A DNA stretch of 64,000 nucleotides from Octopus vulgaris (taxonomy: Eukaryota), in the NCBI GenBank assembly GCA_951406725.2, contig OX597827.1:32116001-32180000 (forward strand), read 5' to 3'. The notes under the pieces are model-generated. The model was not told the DNA's origin. It did not search any database and was given only the letters and a program-made list of their open reading frames with translations. The position numbers were made by a program, and so were the translations under genes. Below, in pieces: positions 5,811 through 62,703 of the stretch (position 1 is its first letter; every line of letters begins with the position of its first letter).

Positions 5811-6159
5811 GAATGGTAATGGCTAGCTTTCCGATTTCTGCACGACGTTTATTTTTTGTGAGTGTATAATGATATGTGGAAATTGATGAAATAAAGTCTG
5901 TTATCAGCATATTGTTGGGAATCAAACTTCTTACCACACAGTCACTCCTGCACCTTTATTTATTTTAGTTTTGGTTTTTATCTACCTAGGACTATATTAT
6001 CTAATGGAATTTCAAACTTATCTTTCTCAGCCTTGTCATAGTAAATATATATTTACCCTGCAGTGTCTTGAAATTTAAATTACCGATTTCCAGTATTTCT
6101 CTTGCAAACTTCTCAAGGGTCTGGAGTTCACAAGTCGAGAACTGTCGTACGATATATTG

Positions 6160-24485: not shown

Positions 24486-24513
<28 letters not shown>

Positions 24514-24749
24514 CAATGATAAATATCAAAGTGAGTTATATACAGTAGCGGTAACACATCGTGACGTATTTTTGCCATTTCAATATGGCTAACCCCTAAG
24601 GGTGGATGCTACTGTAGTTTTTAGCCCCAGGAGGACACACTCCTCCAGCTGGCCATAGACACACTTTCTGTGTCCTGTCAGTATTTGCAAAGGGAAAAAG
24701 TATAAGTATTTGTGAAGGAAATCTAATTCTCGGCGACAACTATGATTGT

Positions 24750-24794
24750 CACACGCTGACGAGAGGTCAATACCTCGAAACTCGAGTCCGTGTG
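24750..24794 (+). ncRNA. Type I hammerhead ribozyme, canonical core
   Basis: CACACG-CTGACGA-GAGGT-caat-ACCTC-GAAA-CTCGAG-TC-CGTGTG; predicted GUC cleavage after 24788. Confidence 0.9.
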
Positions 24795-25102
24795 TATCAT
24801 AAGTTGAAGACGGGAAGGATGACTTCCCTTTGCAAATACTGACAGGACACAGAAAGTGTGTCTATGGCCAGCTGGAGGAGTGTGTCCTCCTGGGGCTAAA
24901 AACTACAGTAGCATCCACCCTTAGGGGTTAGCCATATTGAAATGGCAAAAATACGTCACGATATGTTACCGCTACTGTATATAACTCACTTTGATATTTA
25001 TCATTGTTTGACTTCACTTTTTCAATATCAGCGACAGTGGGCGCTGGAAAAAGTATAAGTATTTGTGAAGGAAATCTAATTCTCGGCGACAACTATGATT
25101 GT

Positions 25103-25147
25103 CACACGCTGACGAGAGGTCAATACCTCGAAACTCGAGTCCGTGTG
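25103..25147 (+). ncRNA. Type I hammerhead ribozyme, canonical core (second tandem copy)
   Basis: Identical to 24750-24794; predicted cleavage after 25141. Confidence 0.9.
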
Positions 25148-25308
25148 TATCATAAGTTGAAGACGGGAAGGATGACTTCCCTTTGCAAATACTGACAGGA
25201 CACAGAAAGTGTGTCTATGGCCAGCTGGAGGAGTGTGTCCTCCTGGGGCTAAAAACTACAGTAGCATCCACCCTTAAGGGTTAGCCATATTGAAATGGCA
25301 AAAATACG

Positions 25309-25339
<31 letters not shown>

Positions 25340-34100: not shown

Positions 34101-36150
34101 AACTTTAGGCTCATCATTCTGCTCAATGCAGACCTGAAAATTGTGCCCATGGTGTTAGCCAAGAGGTTGGCGCTTGTCATCGAGAAACTGGTCGACAAGG
34201 CACAAACGTGCGCCGTGCCGGGCCGGAGCATCCATGACAACTTCCATCGAAGCGCTACATCATAGACAGAGTAGTTAAGGAATCTGGCATTGGTGGGGCC
34301 CTGATCAATTTGGATCAATCGAAAGCTTTCGATAGGGTAGACCATCGATACTTGGAGGCAGTCCTGAGAGCGGCTGGTTTCGGTCCCGTTTTCCGCGGCT
34401 GGATAGCTGCTTTGTACAGAGGTATCCGTTCGGCAATTCGCGTAAATGGACATCTATCGAGACCTTTCGACATTGCACGTTCGGTCCGTCAGGGATGCCC
34501 CCTCTTTCGCTTCTATACGTATTGACTCTCGAGCCACTACTGCGGAAGCTGGCGACTCTGAGGGGCATCCCGCGAGAACTGGGATGCGGGACGAGCGTGT
34601 CTGCATACGCGGACGACGTCACCGTCATAGTGACAAGCCACGAGCACATCGAGCTGAAAGACTACGAAGCGGTGACAGGAGCAAAAATCAACCGGGAAAA
34701 GTCAGCGCCTCCGTCGTGGGACGCTGGACGGAAGGCCCAGTCGAGTTGCTCGGGGTCTGGTTCGGTCCGGACCTCCAAATGGAGAAGAACTCGAACGAGA
34801 TAACGAGTAGGGTGGTCACTCTCGCCCGGCAATGAGCCGAGAAGAAACTGTCCCTAAAAGGTCGGGCGAAGGTGGCGAACACGTACATCGCGTCCATAAT
34901 CTATTACCGCCTGACCGTCGTACCTTGTCCCGACCCTACCATCACCAAACTAGAACGCATTCTCTTTCACTTCTTGTGGAAAGGATGCGTCCCGATGGTC
35001 AGGCGATCCATTTGCTGTCAACACCCGTTAAAAGGAGGACTGGGCATGCCGTGGTTGATGATGCGCAAACACGCGCTAAGACTGCGACATCTCAGGCTCT
35101 ACGTAGACGACGGTGAACAAGTGTGGTCGCCGTTTGTGAGGCACGCTTCCCCGCAACTCGTCTCCATGACCGAACTGCAGTCGTGGATCAAAAAAAGGCC
35201 AAGGAAAGGTGAATGGCACCGCGAGTGTCGCGTTGCACTCAACCAACTATGCCATCCCGGGTCGACCCAAGCATTCTATAGGGGATTAGTGGAGGGGAGG
35301 TGCGACGACGATCTTGGGGCGAACCTGGACGTCTACGAGGAATACCTGACCCGCCTGTTCGAGACGACTTTCGGGCCAGGGCCCATGGACAACTTCCAGA
35401 GATCCCTGGCCTGGCAGTGCTACCGAGAAGCGCTACCCGTTCTGGATAAGCTCTACAGACACGGCTCGAGAAACACGGGGCCGACCTGCCCGAGATGCGG
35501 TCAGAGCGACGAAACCGTTCTGCACGCACTTGTGCAGTGTCCAACAATTTCCGACCTGTGGGCTTATGTCGAACAACTGCTGTCACGTGTGGGACGAGTC
35601 GGTTTATCAGCCGAGTCTATCGTCAATATCGTCACGCCTCCTTCCTTCAAACGGGAAGGAAGAGCTATTTTTATCATCCTTGTGGCTATGGCGAAAGAAT
35701 GTATCTGGTGGATGCGTCTAAAAGGATTGGAGACAAACACTTTCCTCACTGGTCAATCTCTCATCAACTTCTTCAAGTATCACTTGAAAAGGAAAGTGAG
35801 AGTAGAGAGGCAAGTTTTGTCTAGCGAATGTTTTAAAAAAAGATGGGTGAATGTAGCAAGAATGGCACGTATGAATGACGAAGCCACCTTGAGCATAATC
35901 CTATGAACCTGGAAATTGAAAACAGAGGATTACCTACTTGCAAATAAATGTGGTAACATGTAACAATATTAACCGAGGTTACCGTGGTCTTTTCCGTAGG
36001 CTTTTCTCCCCACGGATAAACCTTATCTGCTTCCCCTTTACACCTTACATCTATGATACACGATCCCTATTGATCGTTTTTTTCCCTTTTTGTTTCCCTT
36101 TTTATATTTTCTCCCGTCTGTGTGCATCCCTTTGTGGCTAATAAAGAATC
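31180..36150 (+). mobile_element. L1/Tx1-clade LINE, near full length, degraded: ORF1 (zinc knuckle) and ORF2 (APE endonuclease, RT, zinc finger)
   Basis: ORF1 RCYLCGSEEHL; ORF2 VNARGL, SET, VYAP, GD.N, SYLDRI, TDHK, LDQSKAFDRVDH, SAYADD, CPRCG..DETVLHAL..C; AATAAA then (TATC)n. Confidence 0.93.
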
Positions 36151-36231: not shown

Positions 36232-36879
36232 AATTAGAATTGAAAGAAAGTCTTGTTGAACTTTTAGCATGATCATTTTGAATATTCTTTTTCAAAGGTT
36301 ACCATATAATAAACATTAATTTTTATATACGATAGTTTGTTCTTTTTTTTTCTTTATTTATAGATTACTTTATACCATAGTGGTTAAATTTGTATAGACT
36401 TTAGCTTTTCAAAATGAGTAAAATTACGCCTACAGCAGACATTCAATGCTGCATGAATTCAAAAGATGCTCTTCAGCAATGGAAATGGTAAGAAATATCC
36501 GTCCTGTCAATGGAAATGAAGTTTTAAGTTCCCGGTTATGCTAAAGATAATTTGGCCAGTTTCGTGCGGGAAATTTTTCTGTCGCCAAATTTCTATAATC
36601 TGGACAATCAAATCTATTTATACTAAGCTTCTGGAAACCATATTAGAGGAAAATCAGGGGCAAGCTGCACGGAAGTTAGCAAAACAGTTCACGTCACACT
36701 TCGATTGTAAAACATCTTATGGGATTAGGAAAAGAGTCAAGACTTGGTCAATGTGTCCCTCATTATCAGACTGCTTCTCAGCTCAATCAAAGGGTTGCCT
36801 TCTATTCGTAATTGAACAGAATTGCTACCGAAACTTTCCTGGATAGAATTATCACAAGTGATGAAGAGCGTAATTTCTA

Positions 36880-37176
36880 CATTATTTACATTTGACGGAT
36901 ATTTGTCTTCATCTTGTTTGTTGTTAATACAACGTTTCGGCTGATATACCCTCCTGCCTTCATCAGGTGTCTTGGGGGAAATTTCGAACCTGGGTTCCCA
37001 TTCCTAAGGTATTTTTCGATGTTATCATCATCATTTCAGGTCACTACCTGGAATCGAACTCGGAATCTTGGGGTTAGTAGCCCACGCTCTTAACCACAGC
37101 GCCATATGCCCGTGGGCGTAGGTTCAGAGCGCGGACTACTAACCCCAAGATTCCGAGTTCGATTCCAGGCTGTGAG

Positions 37177-37242: not shown

Positions 37243-37273
<31 letters not shown>

Positions 37274-37455
37274 TCGAAAAATACCTTAAGAATGAGAACC
37301 CAGGTTCGAAATTTCCGCAAGACACCTGATGAAGGCTGGAGAGTATATCAGCCGAAATGTTGTGTTAACAACAAACAAGATGAGGACAGATATCCGTCAA
37401 ATGTAAATAAAGTAAATAATGTACATAATTCCTCATCTTTTAAATATAGAACTGC
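36880..37455. mobile_element. Head-to-head inverted dimer of a tRNA-head / (AAT)n / hammerhead element, 13-bp TSD
   Basis: AGCGTAATTTCTA at 36867-36879 and 37456-37468; arms are reverse complements around about 37112; HHR folds at 36926-36971 (-) and 37321-37366 (+). Confidence 0.85.
37321..37366 (+). ncRNA. Minimal type I hammerhead ribozyme
   Basis: GACAC-CTGATGA-A-GGCTG-gagagtatat-CAGCC-GAAA-TG-TT-GTGTT (other copies have GAAACGTT). Confidence 0.75.
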
Positions 37456-41186: not shown

Positions 41187-41443
41187 ACACACACACATTA
41201 TATTTGTGGGGGATCACTATACGAAAAAAGTAGATTGGATTGTATTTTACGTCGCTAACTTGTTACTAAATCATGTTACATAGAGTTTCAGCGTTTTGTA
41301 AATTAAAATTGATTGATGTTACTTAGTCGTTTACCTGCCGCTTGCCATAAATTCTGTGGTCGCCCAAGGACAGATGCCTAAACCGTGTTAAAGTATAAAA
41401 AAACAATAGAGAAAAGGAAATAGTCCAAAAATATATATTTATT

Positions 41444-41496
<53 letters not shown>

Positions 41497-41497
<1 letters not shown>

Positions 41498-44470
41498 AAG
41501 CTGGAACTACCACCACATAAGGCCACCACCAAAAGATGCAGGATGGCCACCACAGACACCAACACACACACCGCAAAAATATTTCTACTGAACGTAGGGG
41601 CGCTGCTGCGCGGCAACTGTAAAAGCAAAATCTCATTCCTGAGAGACCTTGTGACATGCAATCAAGCTATATGCATGGCACTCATAGAAACGCATCTTGG
41701 ACCCGATATAGGGGATGCAGAAATACACATACCGCAATATGTTGTCATACGCTCAGATAGAAAAGGGAGGAGCCATGGTGGAGTTGCAATGTACATCCGA
41801 GATGACCTCACGCCCCAGGTCCTGTTGTCATATTCAAACTCAGTGTGTGACACTCAAATTGTACACATAAGACAACTGAATATCATCATATGTACTACAT
41901 ATCGCCCACCGGATGCCCCAAATCACACAGGCACGTTTAAAGACTGCCTAACAAAAATAGGAGAAGTTCTCACCAACCTTGAACCAGTGTATTCTTCATG
42001 GGTGACTTTAACTTCCCCAATGTGGAATGGCCTGGGGGGGGGGCAGATGCTCCCAGGAATGACACACCATCAGCAGGCACAGGCAGAGTCCCTGCTCCAT
42101 CTCACAAATGCCTCTTTCATGGAGCAAATAGTACTGCAACCAACTAGGGCAAATAATATACTGGATCTCTGCTTCACAAACAATATGGATATTATCCATA
42201 ATGTTAAAGTGATGCCGACAATGATCTCGGATCACAACATAATAGAGCTGTCTATGTATGGATCAAAAGACCCCGCAGACACACAGCCTATACGAAGCAT
42301 CCACAATCTCTCCAAATTAAACTTTCATAAAGCAAATTGGAAGTTGATTGAAAAAGAGATCCTCAAACAGGATTGGCCTAAATGTCTCTCCACACCAGAC
42401 ATTGACATGAAACACAAAAGATTCATGTCCATAATACAAGCCATATGTGACAAATATGTCCCAGTGTGCAGGGCCAGCACACGCAAAAACAAAAACAGGA
42501 TCCCTAGAGAAAGGAAGATTCTTATGAGACGACGAACAAGGATTGCGAACCGCCTGAGCAAGCACATCAAAAGTGGTGAGAAGTCTCGACTCGAGAGAAT
42601 GCTAATAGAAATTGAGAAAAGTCTGCATCAGTCTCATAAAAAGGAGAGAACAGATAAAGAAGCTTGGGTAATAGAAAATATAAAGTCAAATCCAAAAGCT
42701 TTCTTTAAGTTTGCCAAAGAGACAGCCACAGTGCACCAGAGAATAGGACCTCTCTTCCAAAAAGATGGCTCTCTCACAGGAAATCCAACGAGGATAAGTG
42801 AAATACTGAATGAACAGTTCCAAAGTGTGTTCACTACACCTCTAGGACACAGGCAAGTAAACAACCCTGAAGAATTCTTTGCCACTTTACCTGCGGCCAA
42901 ATAGGCAAAAATTGAGTACATCAACATTGAAGATGATGATATTACACTGGCCATAGATGAGATTGACATAAACTCAGCTGCTGGACCTGATGGATTTCCA
43001 GCGATCCTTCTCAAATCGTGCAAACGAGCACTTGCAGAACCGCTACAGCTTCTTTTTCAGAGCTTTCGTGCAAGTGGTAAGGTCCCAGTCAAATTGAAAG
43101 AGGGGGGAATATGCCCTATCCATAAGGGAGGAAGCAGAGCAGACGCTAAAAATTATAGGCCTATCTCTCTGACCTCACACATCAGCAAAGTTATTTTCTT
43201 CCTTGAAGAAAATGACTTGCTGACTGACACCCAGCATGGATTTCGACAAGGTAGAAGCTGCCTAACACAGCTCCTGCAACACTATGACTGGGTGTTAAAA
43301 CAGCTACTAAATGGCTCAAATGTGGATGTGATATATATCGATTTTGTAAAAGCCTTTGATAAAGTCGACCATGGTATGATTTGTCACAAACAGCGTGGTC
43401 TCGGCATAGGCGGAAAACTTGAAGAGTGGCTGCACAACTTCCTAAAAGATAGAAGGCAGGCAGTTGTGACCAATGGAGCCACCTCCAAGGAAACACAAAT
43501 AACAAGCGGTGTTCCACAGGGAACCGTCTTGGGGCCACTGCTGTTCATAGTGGTCCTTTCAGACATGCCCTCAGTTGCTAAGATGGCCACCCTTGCTAGT
43601 TATGCAGAGGACACAAAAGTTTCCCACACAATACAAAACCCTGGAAATATTGCACATCTGCAACAAGAAGAATTGTAATCCCTGAGTCAAAATCAGTGCG
43701 TGACCTGGGCATTGACATGAGCAATGATGCATCTTTCCAAGTGCATATTACTAATTTGGTGATAAAATGCAGACGGCTAGCTGGATGGATTCTCCGAACT
43801 TTCAGAACAAGAGAGAAGGAGACACTGATGGTCCTGTGGAAAACTTTCGTCCTCAGCCGCTTGGACTACTGCTTCCAACTATGGTCACCACACAATATAA
43901 AACTAACAGCAGAACTCGAAGCAATTCAAAGAAGCTACACAAAGAAGATCGTCTCAATGCAAAATATCAGCTACTGGGAAAGACTGAAAGCATTAAACCT
44001 CTTCTCCCTAGAGCGAAGGCAGGAGAGATATGCAGTGATATACATCTGGAAAATCCTGGAGGGTCTAGTCCCAAACTTTGGCATTCAAAGTTACCCCAAC
44101 CGCAGAACGGGGCGCCACTGCATGGTGTCAAAGATTTCAACATCACCATCAAAATACAGGACCAGATACTGCAACAGCTTGGGTTTCAGAGGACCACAGT
44201 TCTTTAACATCCTCCCTAAATGCCTGAGAGACTTGCATGGTGTGGATGTGGGTTTCTTTAAAACTAAACTGGATCTCTTCTTGTCGGGGGTCCCAGATGA
44301 ACCTACCTCACGACAGGAGACACAGATGCGGGCAGCGGCATCGAACTCCCTTGTTGACCAAGTGCCACGTATCAGAGGTGGATTCACATACTAGTGTAGC
44401 TCATTCAGCGGTGGTGCCCCAGCATGGCCGCAGCCTTCGGGCTGAAACATTTTATAGGATTTTAAGGATT
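41497..44470 (+). mobile_element. CR1-clade LINE ORF2 (APE endonuclease plus RT), with stops and internal deletions, intact 3' end
   Basis: ETHL, RSDR..GGVA, YRPP, NILDL, SDHN; GPDG, NYRPISLTS, QHGFR.GRSC, KAFDKVDH, SGVPQGTVLGPLLF, YAED, RRQERY..IYIWKIL. Confidence 0.93.
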
Positions 44471-44474
44471 TATT

Positions 44475-44561
<87 letters not shown>

Positions 44562-44562
<1 letters not shown>

Positions 44563-45025
44563 GGGTTGATGCTACTGTAGCTTGTAGCCTTAGGAGGACA
44601 TCTCCAGCTGGCTATTGACACACTTTCTGTGCCCTATCAGTATTCACAAAGGGAAGCCATCCTTCGCGTCTTCGACCTATGATACACACGGACTCGAGTT
44701 TCCGGGTATTGACCCGTCATCAGCGTGTGACAATCAATGGTTGTCGATATCGGTGACTTTTCGTCACTGGAAAAAGGATATATATTTGCAAAGTGAGGCC
44801 TACTTTTCATCGGCAATCAGTGATTGTCACACGCTGGTGACGGGTCAATACCCAGAAACTCGAGTCCGTGTGTATCATAGGTTGAAGACGGGAAGGATGG
44901 TTTCCCTTTGCAAATATTGATAGGGCACAGAAAGTGTGTTAACAGCCAGCTGGAGGAAGAGTCCTTCTGGAGCTACAAGCTACAGTAGCATCCACCCTTA
45001 GGGGTTAGCCACATTTAAGAGGCAA
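44562..45025. mobile_element. Diverged sister of the 24512-25312 HHR element, as an inverted pair in (TA)n
   Basis: Shares the GGGAAGGATG..TTCCCTTTGCAAATA..GA.AGG.CACAGAAAGTGTGT...CTACAGTAGCATCCACCCTTAGGGGTTAGCCA block; HHRs at 44685-44729 (-) and 44828-44872 (+). Confidence 0.85.
44685..44729 (-). ncRNA. Type I hammerhead ribozyme, canonical core
   Basis: Minus strand: CACACG-CTGATGA-CGGGT-caat-ACCCG-GAAA-CTCGAG-TC-CGTGTG. Confidence 0.88.
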
Positions 45026-45160
45026 ATATATATATATATATGTGTGTGTGTGTTTGTGTGTATATATATATGTATGTATATGTATATATATGTATGTATA
45101 TGTATATATAGGTATGTATATATATATGTATGTATGTATATAGATGTATATAGATATATG

Positions 45161-47847: not shown

Positions 47848-47942
<95 letters not shown>

Positions 47943-47957
47943 GTATATATATATATT

Positions 47958-47992
<35 letters not shown>

Positions 47993-48032
47993 GTATACAT
48001 ATTTATATATGTATATATGTATATAAATTCCT

Positions 48033-50005
48033 TTAAAATATTTTAGCCTGAAGGCCGCGGCCATGTTGGGGCACCACCGCTGAATGTGCTACACCAATAT
48101 GGGAAACCACCTCTGATACGTAGCACTTGGTCAACAAGGGAGTTCGATGCCGCTGCCCGCATCTGTGTCTCCTGTCGTGAGGTAGGTTCATCTGGGACCC
48201 CCGACAAGAAGAGATCCAGTTTAGTTTTAAAGAAACCCACATCCACGCCATGCAAGTCTCTCAGACATTTAGGGAGGATGTTAAAGAGCTGTGGTCCTCT
48301 GAAACCCAAGCTGTTGCAGTATGTGGTCATGTATTTTGATGCTGATGTTGAAATCTTTGGCACCATGCAGTGGCGCCCCGTTCTGCAGTTGGGGTAACTT
48401 TGAATGCCAAAGTTTGGGACAAGACCCTCCAGGGTTTTCCAGATGTATATCATCGCATATCTCTCCCGCCTTCGCTCTAGGGAGAAGAGGTTTAATACTT
48501 TCAGTCTTTCTCAGTAGCTGATATTTTGCATTGAGACGATCTTCTTAGTGTAGCTTCTTTGAATTGCTTCGAGTTCTGCTGTTAGTTTTATATTGTGTGG
48601 TGACCATAGTTGGGAGCAGTAGTCCAAGCGGCTGAGGACGAAAGTTTTCCACAGGACCATCAGTGTCTCCTCTCTTGTTCTGAAAGTTCGGAGAATCCAT
48701 CCAGCTAGCCGTCTGCATTTTATCACCAAATTAGTGATATGCACTTGGAAAGATGCATCATTGCCCATGTCAATGGCCAGGTCACGCACTGATTTTGACT
48801 CAGGGATTGCAATTCTTCCCGGGCCAGTGTATCCAGTCTGCATGTCGTTTACCTTTGTGTGCCGGTAGCGCAGGGCCTGGAACTTACCTGCATTAAACTG
48901 CATGTTGTTGTCCTCAGCCCACCTGTATATTGTATCCAACTCCTGTTGCAGATGTGCAATATTTCCAGGGTTTTGTATTGTGTGGGAGACTTTTGTTTCA
49001 TCTGCATAGCTAGCAAGAGTGGCCATCTTAGCAACTGAGGGCATGTCTGAAAGGGCCACTATGAACAGCAGTGGCCCCAAGACAGTGCCCTGTGGAACAT
49101 CGCTTGCTATTTGTGTTTCCTTGGAGGTGGCTCCATTGGTCACAACTGCCTGTCTTCTATCTTTTAGGAAGTTGTGCAGCCACTTTCCGAATTTTCCGCC
49201 TATGCCGAGACCACGCTGTTTGTGACAAATCATACCATGGTCGACTTTATCAAAGGCTTTTGCAAAGTCGAGATATATCACATCCACATTTGAGCCATTT
49301 AGTAGCTGTTTTAACACCCAGTCATAGTGTTGAAGGAGCTGTGTTAGGCAGCTTCTACCTTGTCGAAATCCATGCTGGGTGTCAGTCAGCAAGTCATTTT
49401 CTTCAAGGAACATGATTAGTTTCTTGCGGACTATTCGTTCCATGATTTTGCTGATGTGTGAGGTCAGAGAGATAAGCCTATAATTTTTAGCCTCTGCTCT
49501 GCTTCCTCCCTTATGGATAGGGCATATTACCCCCTCTTTCAATTTGACTAGGAGCTAACCACTTGCATGAAAGCTCTGAAAAAGAAGCTGTAGCTGTTCT
49601 GCAAGTGCTCATTTGCACGATTTGAGAAAGATCGCTGGAAATCCATCAGGTCCAGCAGCTGAGTTTGTGTCAATCTCATCTATGGCGAGTGTGATATCAT
49701 CATCTTCAATGTTGATGTACTCAATTTTTGCCTATTTGGCCGCAGGTAAAGTGGCAAAGAATTCTTCAGGGTTGTTTACTTGCCTGTGTCCTAGAAGTGT
49801 AGTGAACACACTCTGGAACTGTTCATTCAGTATTTCACTTATACTCGTGAGATTTCCTGTGAGAGAGCCATCTTTCTGGAAGAGAGGTCCTATTCTCTGG
49901 TGCACCGTGGCTGTCTCTTTGGCAAACTTCAAGAAAGCTTTAGGGTTTGACTTTATATTTTCTATTACCCAAGCTTCTTTATCTGTCCTCTCCTTTTCAT
50001 GAGAC
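48033..50005 (-). mobile_element. CR1-clade LINE, 5'-truncated, same subfamily as 41497-44470, opposite orientation
   Basis: 343-aa RT ORF 48511-49542 is nearly identical in translation to 43094-44000; same 3' end. Confidence 0.93.
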
Positions 50006-50478
50006 TGATGAGACTGATATATATATATATTTATATATATATATAAACTTACTTGGAGAACAGAAAAGAAACGAAACGACGCGAGAGCGCTCAGTCATGC
50101 AATAAATTAATAAATAAAATACATGCATACATACATATATGTACGTACCTACATCCACATGTATATATACATGCATATATAAATATATATATGTGAGTAC
50201 AGGACACCAGAAATAGACGTAGAACTCGACGAGAAACGAAAACGTAAAAACAAACTTGGAAACGGACTTTTTTTTAAACAACGAAAAAACAGAGTACAAG
50301 ACAGACAATACAAGGAAAATTCCCCTTCATCAGCTGTCCCTAGTTCGACTCCATGCGTGTTTCGAAGGTAAGGACAGAACACGACTCGTCGAACTAGCCC
50401 TTCCTGCGAAAGAATTAAATAAAATTCCTTTGCAGAGGGGTAAAAAGAAGGAAAGAAAAAAATATTTATTTCCCCTTA

Positions 50479-53017: not shown

Positions 53018-54330
53018 CGCGCGCACGCACGCATGCATGCATACAAGTGTGTGTATATATATTTATATATATTCATGTATAGATAGGCATATTTACATAT
53101 TTGCACATATATTCCCATATACTCGTCTGTCTGTTTGGCTCTCTCTCTCTCTCTCTCTCTCTCCCTCCGGCATTCTCTTTCCGTTTCAGTAAGCAGTAGC
53201 TCAGAACGTTCGTATTATTGTACACTTTCCAACCATCTTCCAGCCTTGGTCCTTATCCACGACAAGGTTAACAACCTCATTAAGTTTAATATTGCGTCCA
53301 TCCGGCTAAACGCTTATTAACGCGTGAAATGTTTGTCTTTTGCAAATCTCCTTCATGCTAACTCTCATCTGCTTGGTTTTCTCGCGTCTAAAAGGTAGCC
53401 ATATCTGATCTCCTTAAAACATCTCCAATTAAAATGAATCTTGTTGAACATAAAATGCTAACGGACGAGAAATTTCTGCGTTTGCTTGCATTTAGCCAAG
53501 ATCCTTGCATTCATTATTTAATTTTCGTGAAAAATAAACTCCGAGATCATCAAGCAACTATATTTTCTGCGAGTGTTTCTACTTTTTTTTCACGCTTAAC
53601 TACTGTGGTGTAATGCACAACTATTTCAATGCAATGCAACTTTTGAAAAGTAGCATCTTGATTCTATCATTGACGGAACTATTCCAAATATGGTAAAATT
53701 CTTCCATGGCGTTAATTGGCGTCTTTGGCTAAAAGCCCTTGTCCTACTACTTCCAATGTCGCATCGAATATAAAGCGAAAATACGAGATTAGAGAATGTC
53801 GTCACCATGAGAGAACATTTCTAATTTTGGAACGCCAATCACCAAAAAGCATGACTTCTGTTATATATGCACACATACACACTTACTAGACCCGCTATGT
53901 GGTCGCTTGACGTGCTAGAAATATCAACTAATTTACTTGGCATCTTAGGCAAGTATCTTTTACTGTGGCCTCGGACTAACCAAAGCCTTGTGAGTAGATT
54001 TGGTAGATAGAAACTGAAAGAAGCTCGTCGTGCATATATATATAAAATTAATATAGACAGCTGTGTGAATGTGTGACCAAAAAGGAAAACTATAAACGTC
54101 AGTAAATATGAGTAGGGTATTAGAACACCTACATTGCTAGAAATAAGAGCTAAAATGCCCTAATCCTGTATAAAGCACATAATTGTATACACATGCACTG
54201 ACATAGATTGTAATCGCCCGAAAACACCGGTCGAGAAATTCACTACACTGATCGGTCAGTTTCGGCTAATTCCATAACCTCATCAGCAGGGACCGTTGAT
54301 TCGGCTGATTCCGGACTTAATCATCTGTCA

Positions 54331-61742: not shown

Positions 61743-62056
61743 GCGACATATTTACAACAATAATTGATAGTAAAAATGAAAATAAATAAATGAGTAAAGT
61801 CCATATTGCATGTGGAATAGAAATGGAACGCAAATTCCTCATTATGTTGCTTTAATGTGAGAAAAATAACCCAACAGAAACAGTAATGGGCCAGTAACTA
61901 CAACAAAATCAAAATCATATTGTGCTTTTAATCGATAAATCAAAAATAAAAAAAAAATTATGTCAAAATCATGCCAGCAAGCAAAATATTATTTAAAGAG
62001 TAAAAATGGATTGATTTGTCGTAGAAATGAAATAAAGAACCAACTAGTTTCGTGGT

Positions 62057-62272
62057 TCTATACTTAAGAGATGAGGAATTATGTACATTATTTATATTAT
62101 TTACATTGCTTACATTTGACGGATATTTGTCCTCTTCTTGCTTGTTGTTAACACAACGTTTCGGCTGATATATCCTCCAGCCTTCATCAGGTGTCTTGGG
62201 GAAATTTCGAACCTGAACCCATATTTCAAGATGAGGACAAAAATCCGTCAAATGTAAATAATGTAAATAATG
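62057..62272 (-). mobile_element. Second insertion of the 36880-37455 HHR family (centre deleted), intact HHR at 62150-62195
   Basis: Minus strand GACAC-CTGATGA-A-GGCTG-gaggatatat-CAGCC-GAAA-CG-TT-GTGTT; near-TSD TAGTTTC(G/T)TGGT at 62045-62056 / 62273-62284. Confidence 0.8.
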
Positions 62273-62703
62273 TAGTTTCTTGGTCTTTATTGCTTATTGG
62301 GTTTCGTTCATTCCTTTCTCTCCAAATATATCGAGCTAAAAGCAGCGGAAATTTTATTTATTGAGATATTAACAAATTAGGTACCTGGAACAGCTCATTT
62401 GCATAATGATACGAGAAGGACACAGCGACATAAATTACAATGATGCCAAACAAAACAACACTTACGAATAAATAAGTATAAGACTTAAACGCTTAAGAAA
62501 TCGCTAAAGATAGCCCAGTCCAGATTTAATATTGATAAAAGAACCGTTAGAATGCAAGAAAAAAGCCTTATGGAACTTGTCCGGCGCAGAAGTCAACTTT
62601 ATCTTTCTTTCCACTGAGATCGATAAATAAATAAAGTACTAAAAGACCAATGATATCCACCGAAATTCTTCCCTCAAAATTGCCTTCTACTAAAACTTGA
62701 AAA

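Follow-up and report, generated by a model that had tools for sequence, protein, structure and literature searches.

A hammerhead ribozyme motif lies twice, once in each arm of an imperfect inverted repeat, at 44562-45031 of the octopus DNA analysed here (a 64-kb stretch, hereafter the window), and copies some 20 kb away spell its second stem differently. Does this difference record selection on an RNA fold, or mutation after insertion? A preliminary description read it as two base-pair covariations in stem II (CGGGT/ACCCG against GAGGT/ACCTC), took the plus-strand arm to be decayed and concluded that the fold had been selected in both source subfamilies; the letters that it gave for stems I, II and III, GAAA and position 7 in both arms and in the distant copies are confirmed exactly. 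Here we report that 44562-45031 is an old, decayed two-armed insertion of an abundant non-coding type I hammerhead retrozyme, an element of a known kind. We are confident in the reading developed below, in which a non-LTR retrozyme, likely moved by a Penelope-type enzyme, entered a (TA)n target and has been decaying since, and in which ACCCG is a private letter state and not a subfamily covariation.

The focal locus consists of two truncated arms only, with no tandem array. The left arm (44563-44749, minus strand) is a 5'-truncated retrozyme piece that reaches from about -55 to +132, counted from the predicted cut, with a 3' end shorter than both ends usual in the family; the right arm (44744-45031, plus strand), also 5'-truncated, runs from about -123 to +165/+175 and stops at the first of the two usual ends, eroded into (TA)n (about 45029-45043). 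They overlap by about 5-7 nt at their junction (44744-44749; TCGAT/ATCGA). The target site is the (TA)/(CA) microsatellite tail (44477-44562) of a broken APE+RT LINE upstream (41399-44460, plus strand; PF14529 below cut-off, PF00078), which is unrelated to the retrozyme repeat. LINE copies at 42626-44562 and 47926-50010 lie in inverted orientation, are 91-95% alike and have an older relative in between; the tail of the inverted sister near 47.9-48.7 kb is plain (TA)n and contains no retrozyme.

The left-arm hammerhead (44685-44729, minus strand; predicted cut between 44691 and 44690) reads CACACG CTGATGA CGGGT CAAT ACCCG GAAA CTCGAG TC CGTGTG, and its catalytic core (C3-U4-G5-A6-N7-G8-A9, G12-A13-A14, A15.1-U16.1, H17) is complete. 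Its right-arm partner (44828-44872, plus strand; predicted cut 44866/44867) carries CTGGTGA and ACCCA, hence C10.1·A11.1, and departs from the core at A6 only. This A6G change (44837) is private decay, as the preliminary description had it: relatives read A6 at 35,056 of 35,229 depth in sequencing run X15 and at 5,879 of 5,917 in X16, and a natural A6C change gives low activity (PMC3088659). The motif comprises three helices with helix I open (6 bp plus a distal 4 bp, a helix II of 4-5 bp and a helix III of 2 bp), an arrangement other than the one predicted as the monomer's ground state. The Rfam hammerhead model RF00163 gave no match to the two focal arms at E<=10, and nothing within the 64-kb window reached an Rfam gathering score. 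We rejected an alternative register in which, as in minimal Penelope-like element (PLE) hammerheads, A9 is followed by an additional base; G12 would then be preceded by a second unpaired base.

The counterpart near 24.7 kb is a young two-armed insertion of the subfamily that we call E (24512-25315; minus arm 24512-24696, plus arm 24693-25315; (TA)n flanks) with a near-perfect inverted and tandem structure. Its plus arm holds a 353-nt tandem unit with hammerheads at 24750-24794 and 25103-25147, both reading CTGACGA and GAGGT/ACCTC; these score 32.2 bits on RF00163 (E 5.5e-6; below the cut-off of 34), and the copy shows 0/302 differences from the E consensus. As had been noted, the sequence upstream of the hammerhead is the more divergent when the focal plus arm is compared with the copy at 25 kb (51/78 identical, against 51/57 in the hammerhead). 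Downstream, however, 127 of 149 positions agree, so the hammerhead is barely better kept than that flank.

Both insertions belong to a family spread through the 2.8-Gb genome. With the loop given as CAAT and with helix II and positions 4 and 7 unconstrained, a 35-place pattern finds 879 matches, against 0 for its reversed control, which rules out the chance motif that the preliminary description had also dismissed; 175 further exact matches have a loop starting in another base, giving 1,054 copies with an exact scaffold, counts that are lower bounds with decayed and truncated copies missed. The unit is 352 nt long, carries one type I hammerhead and recurs every 352/353 nt in arrays that reach 9 pure units, and its longest ATG open reading frame in a dimer is 38-57 aa. 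Circular folds of subfamilies A to E have a predicted pairing of 60-67%, and comparison with 30 shuffles gives z -6.5 to -7.8, although single 57-nt hammerheads fold no better than shuffles (z 0.04 to -1.5, one of five references being ignored). The family thus has the marks of a non-LTR retrozyme: tandem units within 170-400 nt, non-coding and, by prediction, highly self-paired.

Its anatomy is that of a metazoan non-LTR retrozyme. Like the 350-390-bp repeats of mussels and the axolotl Rtz_353 (HHR_Amex2) described in PMC7229834, it is a non-coding tandem unit of about 350 nt with one type I hammerhead, a 2-bp helix III closed by a tetraloop and a self-paired predicted circle; there too, sister families differ in helix II, and some have U·U at its base. 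Beyond the forms described there, octopus subfamilies also fix C·A, C·U and C4 and offer a readable age-ordered series. The open literature held no description of it that we found, and subscription papers, repeat libraries or supplements may hold one. Contigs wrapping around 353 nt occur in four sequencing runs whose RNA nature is presumed, and tandem DNA would produce them equally; contigs covering the E-type unit in four runs guessed to be RNA are likewise not evidence of transcription, strand or circularity. Runs X15-X20, from several organisms, contain near-identical words of the young E unit at shares of 0.60-0.84. The private letters of the focal arm occur in no long contig among the pieces listed, and run X17 yields three short pieces at the focal locus.

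The dating of these copies is based on 229 hammerhead-spanning arms, reduced to 197 by collapsing tandem units and to 187 with at least 100 flank columns, a non-random sample of top BLAST hits and first-listed pattern matches with rare variants chosen deliberately. Groups were seeded by their hammerhead states and then reassigned by flank sites alone, whereby 11 copies moved. By median non-CpG divergence, the oldest is the outgroup Z (8.6%, n=19; U4, G7, C·A), followed by A (4.8%, n=41; U4, U7, C·A), B (2.5%, n=34; C4, C·A), F (2.5%, n=20; U4, mostly U·U with a few A-U and G·U), C (1.8%, n=28; C4, C·U), D (1.6%, n=24; C4, U·U, A-U at 10.2) and E (1.0%, n=21; U4, C7, G-C). Rooting the consensus tree on Z gives a ladder of A, B, C and then (D,F)+E, with supports of 81, 89, 70 and 92; on this ladder the canonical G-C pair is derived and the 24.7-kb E copy young. 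Both focal arms fall in the old subfamily A (left arm, 8/168 differences from the A consensus against 20/168 from E; right arm, 18/283 against 54/284). A further old variant (L210:1-238) has helix II CGACT/ACCCA with C·A at 10.1/11.1 and is 76-78% alike to Z and A, which indicates that subfamilies older than those sampled exist.

As read from these consensuses, the source lineage was mismatched at 10.1/11.1 through six subfamilies (from C·A by way of C·U to U·U), and G-C appears only in E. What this adds to the known retrozymes is a dated series of helix II states that passes from mismatches to the canonical pair. The G10.1-C11.1 pair is highly conserved in hammerheads, with known exceptions; here it is subfamily-wide only in E and absent from the focal arms, which have a private C-G and a C·A. 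A U·U mismatch occurs there in natural hammerheads (PMC3088659); a fixed C·A or C·U at this pair was not reported in the open literature that we searched. The octopus genome thus offers age-ordered natural variants of one hammerhead lineage, several with a 10.1/11.1 mismatch or a C4 core, and the series makes a retrozyme's need for self-cleavage directly testable.

Was the fold under selection? In the source elements this is likely, judging from the sequences of the family and not, as first argued, from two copies, one of whose covariations is a private post-insertion mutation. Across the seven consensuses, 0 of 29 catalytic (11) and helix I/III (18) positions vary, whereas 112 of 302 flank positions do; the search patterns had fixed 19 of the 29, and the free test is the 10 stem I positions, of which 0 vary. 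In a predicted rod that extends helix I, taken together with the hammerhead, two-sided change occurs in 14 of 48 pairs among 26 distinct genomic copies, compared with 8.0±1.6 in shuffled controls (0/500 as high) and 1-7 in slid controls; the shuffle ignores relatedness, and the rod is taken from the predicted fold of one subfamily. These changes include the stepwise series C-G/U·G/U-A and A-U/G·U/G-C. In the hammerhead alone there is one two-sided change at subfamily level. The invariant core and stems, together with the rod, are what point to selection in source elements; the two-sided changes of the rod are the better evidence and constitute support, not proof, for selection on the source RNA. 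A comparable argument from conservation and compensatory changes, 10.1/11.1 included, was made for the hammerhead of the Dolichopoda pDo500 satellite (PMC2837043), where the changes described are scattered over copies; in the octopus family they are fixed per subfamily and can be dated.

It could be objected that the mismatched hammerheads (C·A, C·U, C4) are dead or dispensable, that the repeat is a SINE-like RNA mobilised by Penelope, and that its core persists through protein binding or for want of time. Hammerhead mutants did not impair insertion by an anole Penelope protein in vitro (PMC11167929), U4C lowers activity in vitro (PMC3088659), and among the 409 matches without G10.1, 289 have a letter other than U at position 4, mostly C among the matches listed. 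The downstream flank, moreover, is nearly as conserved among A to F as the hammerhead (25/176 against 8/45 positions variable). On the other hand, 0 of the 11 catalytic positions vary between consensuses up to about 26% apart, a partly circular comparison, and the changes that did occur sit at positions known to be tolerant (4, 7, 10.1/11.1 and loop 2). The axolotl Amex2 hammerhead, with U·U at the base of helix II, cleaves (PMC7229834), and tandem arrays of unit length fit a cycle of cutting and circularisation. We regard a dispensable hammerhead as improbable, though of the alternatives weighed here it deserves the most attention.

In nearest-neighbour predictions, which leave out tertiary contacts, the active hammerhead fold of each of the seven circles lies 3.6-6.2 kcal/mol higher than the ground state, in which G5-A6-N7 tends to pair with the helix III strand. 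The palindrome ACUCGAGU of helix III can form an 8-bp duplex predicted at -10.7 kcal/mol, and retrozyme hammerhead dimers are reported to cut better than monomers (PMC7229834). In the cycle that we propose, tandem source loci would be transcribed, the palindromic helix III would let two hammerheads cut as a dimer, and the unit RNAs would circularise and fold into the rod, in which the single hammerhead would sit in the predicted off fold. Selection would act on these source RNAs and not on inserted copies. In subfamily E the computed gap to the off fold is 5.9 kcal/mol with C7 and 4.7 with U7, a widening which suggests that position 7 may not be free in this retrozyme RNA. We offer tentatively, as one possibility among several, that the subfamilies document, with dates, how a natural hammerhead evolved within a single lineage: waves of hundreds of copies each would have spread while lacking the usual 10.1-11.1 pair (C·A, C·U and U·U, at one stage with a C4 core), until G-C was regained together with a U7C change that strengthened the predicted off fold. 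If so, retrozyme hammerheads would be tuned not for speed and instead for a balance between cutting in multimers and staying shut in circles, an idea for which the seven source forms are a natural test series.

The shape of the insertions bears on the mobilising enzyme. Penelope insertions are known for an inverted 5'-truncated copy, a one-sided tail and (TA)n targets (PMC8557442), and in an anole Penelope element two internal starts of reverse transcription (RT) explain the PLE tail (PMC11167929). The octopus family has the same marks, namely an inverted truncated arm, two 3' ends and an AT-rich target: counted from the predicted cut, 115 of 258 arm 3' ends fall at +168-182 and 90 at +210-226, and 154 of these 205 run into TATA/ATAT. 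Among 50 inverted-pair rows (48 loci), 18 combine both kinds of end, the first kind is used twice at one locus and the second twice at none; in 30 of the 50, at least one arm ends at neither preferred site. Compared with the Penelope-like insertions described in PMC8557442 and PMC11167929, which share the inverted 5'-truncated arm, the two 3' ends, the tail at one end and the AT/(TA)n targets, the octopus unit has no ORF and a tail of about 45 nt where theirs is 30-40. We infer by this analogy that the mobilising partner is a Penelope-type enzyme, whose RT and endonuclease would prime at two fixed positions within the unit, some 45 nt from each other, one per target strand, so as to give divergent arms. 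The family thereby provides a check, in a second family, of the two-fixed-ends rule for Penelope-type insertion.

Candidate partners exist. Frames of 781 codons with Pfam-supported RT and GIY-YIG domains were present in 16 of the 148 matches listed. A young intact Penelope-type element (L206-L212, L219, L220) has a 765-aa RT with a C-terminal GIY-YIG and, in its 3' region, repeats rich in GATTGG and TGACGT motifs; a helix-II filter found no hammerhead near its ORF. Should the repeat then be seen as a pseudo-LTR left behind by an autonomous Penelope element, rather than as an independent retrozyme? The Penelope-type shape of the insertions would agree with that, as would the reported resemblance of retrozymes to pLTRs (bioRxiv 10.64898/2026.07.22.740005). 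It is nevertheless hard to square with head-to-tail arrays of up to nine units. By blastn, 23 GIY-YIG loci (of the 148 listed) held no Penelope similar to the unit, only two unrelated neighbouring retrozyme fragments met there by chance, and the 56 of 61 flanking ORFs scanned from 137 loci (four left out were the window's own LINE and one overlapped another) included no GIY-YIG and three untyped RVT_1 matches. The hammerhead itself differs from the minimal PLE form: the latter shares type I topology, a palindromic 15.2-16.2/loop 3 and a predicted dimer with it, and is described with a long helix II, with an additional base following A9 and with G10.1-C11.1 highly conserved (PMC4209133), whereas the octopus hammerhead has a helix III, canonical helix lengths and mostly no G10.1-C11.1. 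An orphaned pseudo-LTR is accordingly an unlikely account, and we retain the independent retrozyme.

With the family in view, the spelling of stem II that raised the question can be traced. Set side by side, 44685-44729 and 24750-24794 do differ in two base pairs changed on both sides, and with G11.1 the gap predicted between ground state and active fold is 3.6 kcal/mol instead of 5.0, so that CGGGT/ACCCG might be taken for a subfamily state reached by two compensatory changes, with the ACCCA of the plus arm as its decay. The counts refute this. Of the 879 exact matches, 457 have G-C at 10.1/11.1 (879 minus 409 without G10.1 and minus 13 without C11.1 among the other 470), 223 have C·A and 3 have C-G, one of them the focal minus arm; the remainder are mostly C·U and U·U among the matches listed. 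At the A>G rate found outside the hammerhead in subfamilies A and B (47/3216), 3.3 C-G copies are expected among 226, and the three fall in scattered, unrelated places of a tree of 137 copies inferred from the flank columns alone. ACCCA, in turn, is the consensus in 35 of 41 subfamily A copies and in 17 of 19 copies of the older outgroup Z, and the sister arm of the same insertion carries C·A as well. Counts, neutral rate and scattered placement together identify ACCCA as the source state, not the decay that had been supposed, and ACCCG as a post-insertion mutation: the A>G change at 11.1 (44703) is private, arose at the neutral rate and is not compensatory, and a compensated subfamily state is very improbable. 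In a six-unit E-type array elsewhere (G000:C9:52302413-52304212), every unit has G10.1·U11.1 in place of G-C, which indicates a variant copied from one template.

The second claimed covariation stands. At pair 10.2-11.2 both sides did change: of 26 distinct copies 16 have G-C and 9 have A-U, with G-C in Z, A, B and C and A-U in D, F and E. It is the only pair that truly covaries in the two-copy comparison, probably by a single event, although the bootstrap of only 70 for (D,F)+E means that A-U may have arisen twice. Covariation in a hammerhead repeat is to be expected, and half of the claimed set was an artefact of comparing two copies.

At the focal locus itself, the arms have no non-consensus change in common over 184 overlapping columns and differ in 19, the pattern that a joint insertion followed by separate drift would leave. 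Inserted copies show no sign of selection on the fold, and a ribozyme used by the host and selected at this site, which might be suspected from a minus arm in which no catalytic letter is lost and one pair is gained, is extremely unlikely, given that both arms have drifted about 5-6% from consensus as their siblings did, that helix II in A copies is no better kept than the flanks (32/410 against 293/6086 sites differing from consensus, the former inflated by sub-lineage polymorphism and sampling) and that the arms sit among repeats, in the tail of a LINE. Poor cutting would be expected either way from a single monomer whose palindromic helix III has 2 bp, and 44685-44729 as it stands has likely never transposed. 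For an ADAR footprint, there is no overall excess of sense-strand A>G (93/8039 against 63/6707 for T>C, p=0.23) and none in subfamily A; an excess in B and Z (p about 0.004) is tentatively attributed to unresolved sub-lineages, and we make no claim for ADAR.

Another family of hammerhead repeats in the window is of the minimal Penelope type (36878-37023, minus strand; 37270-37452, plus; 62055-62274, minus), with CTGATGA, an extra A, a 5-bp helix II and almost no helix III, arranged in inverted arms of which one lies beside (AAT)n. A lone hammerhead-like motif at 54260-54286 (minus strand), with a 5-bp helix II, a 4-5-bp helix III and G at the cut position, is probably decayed.
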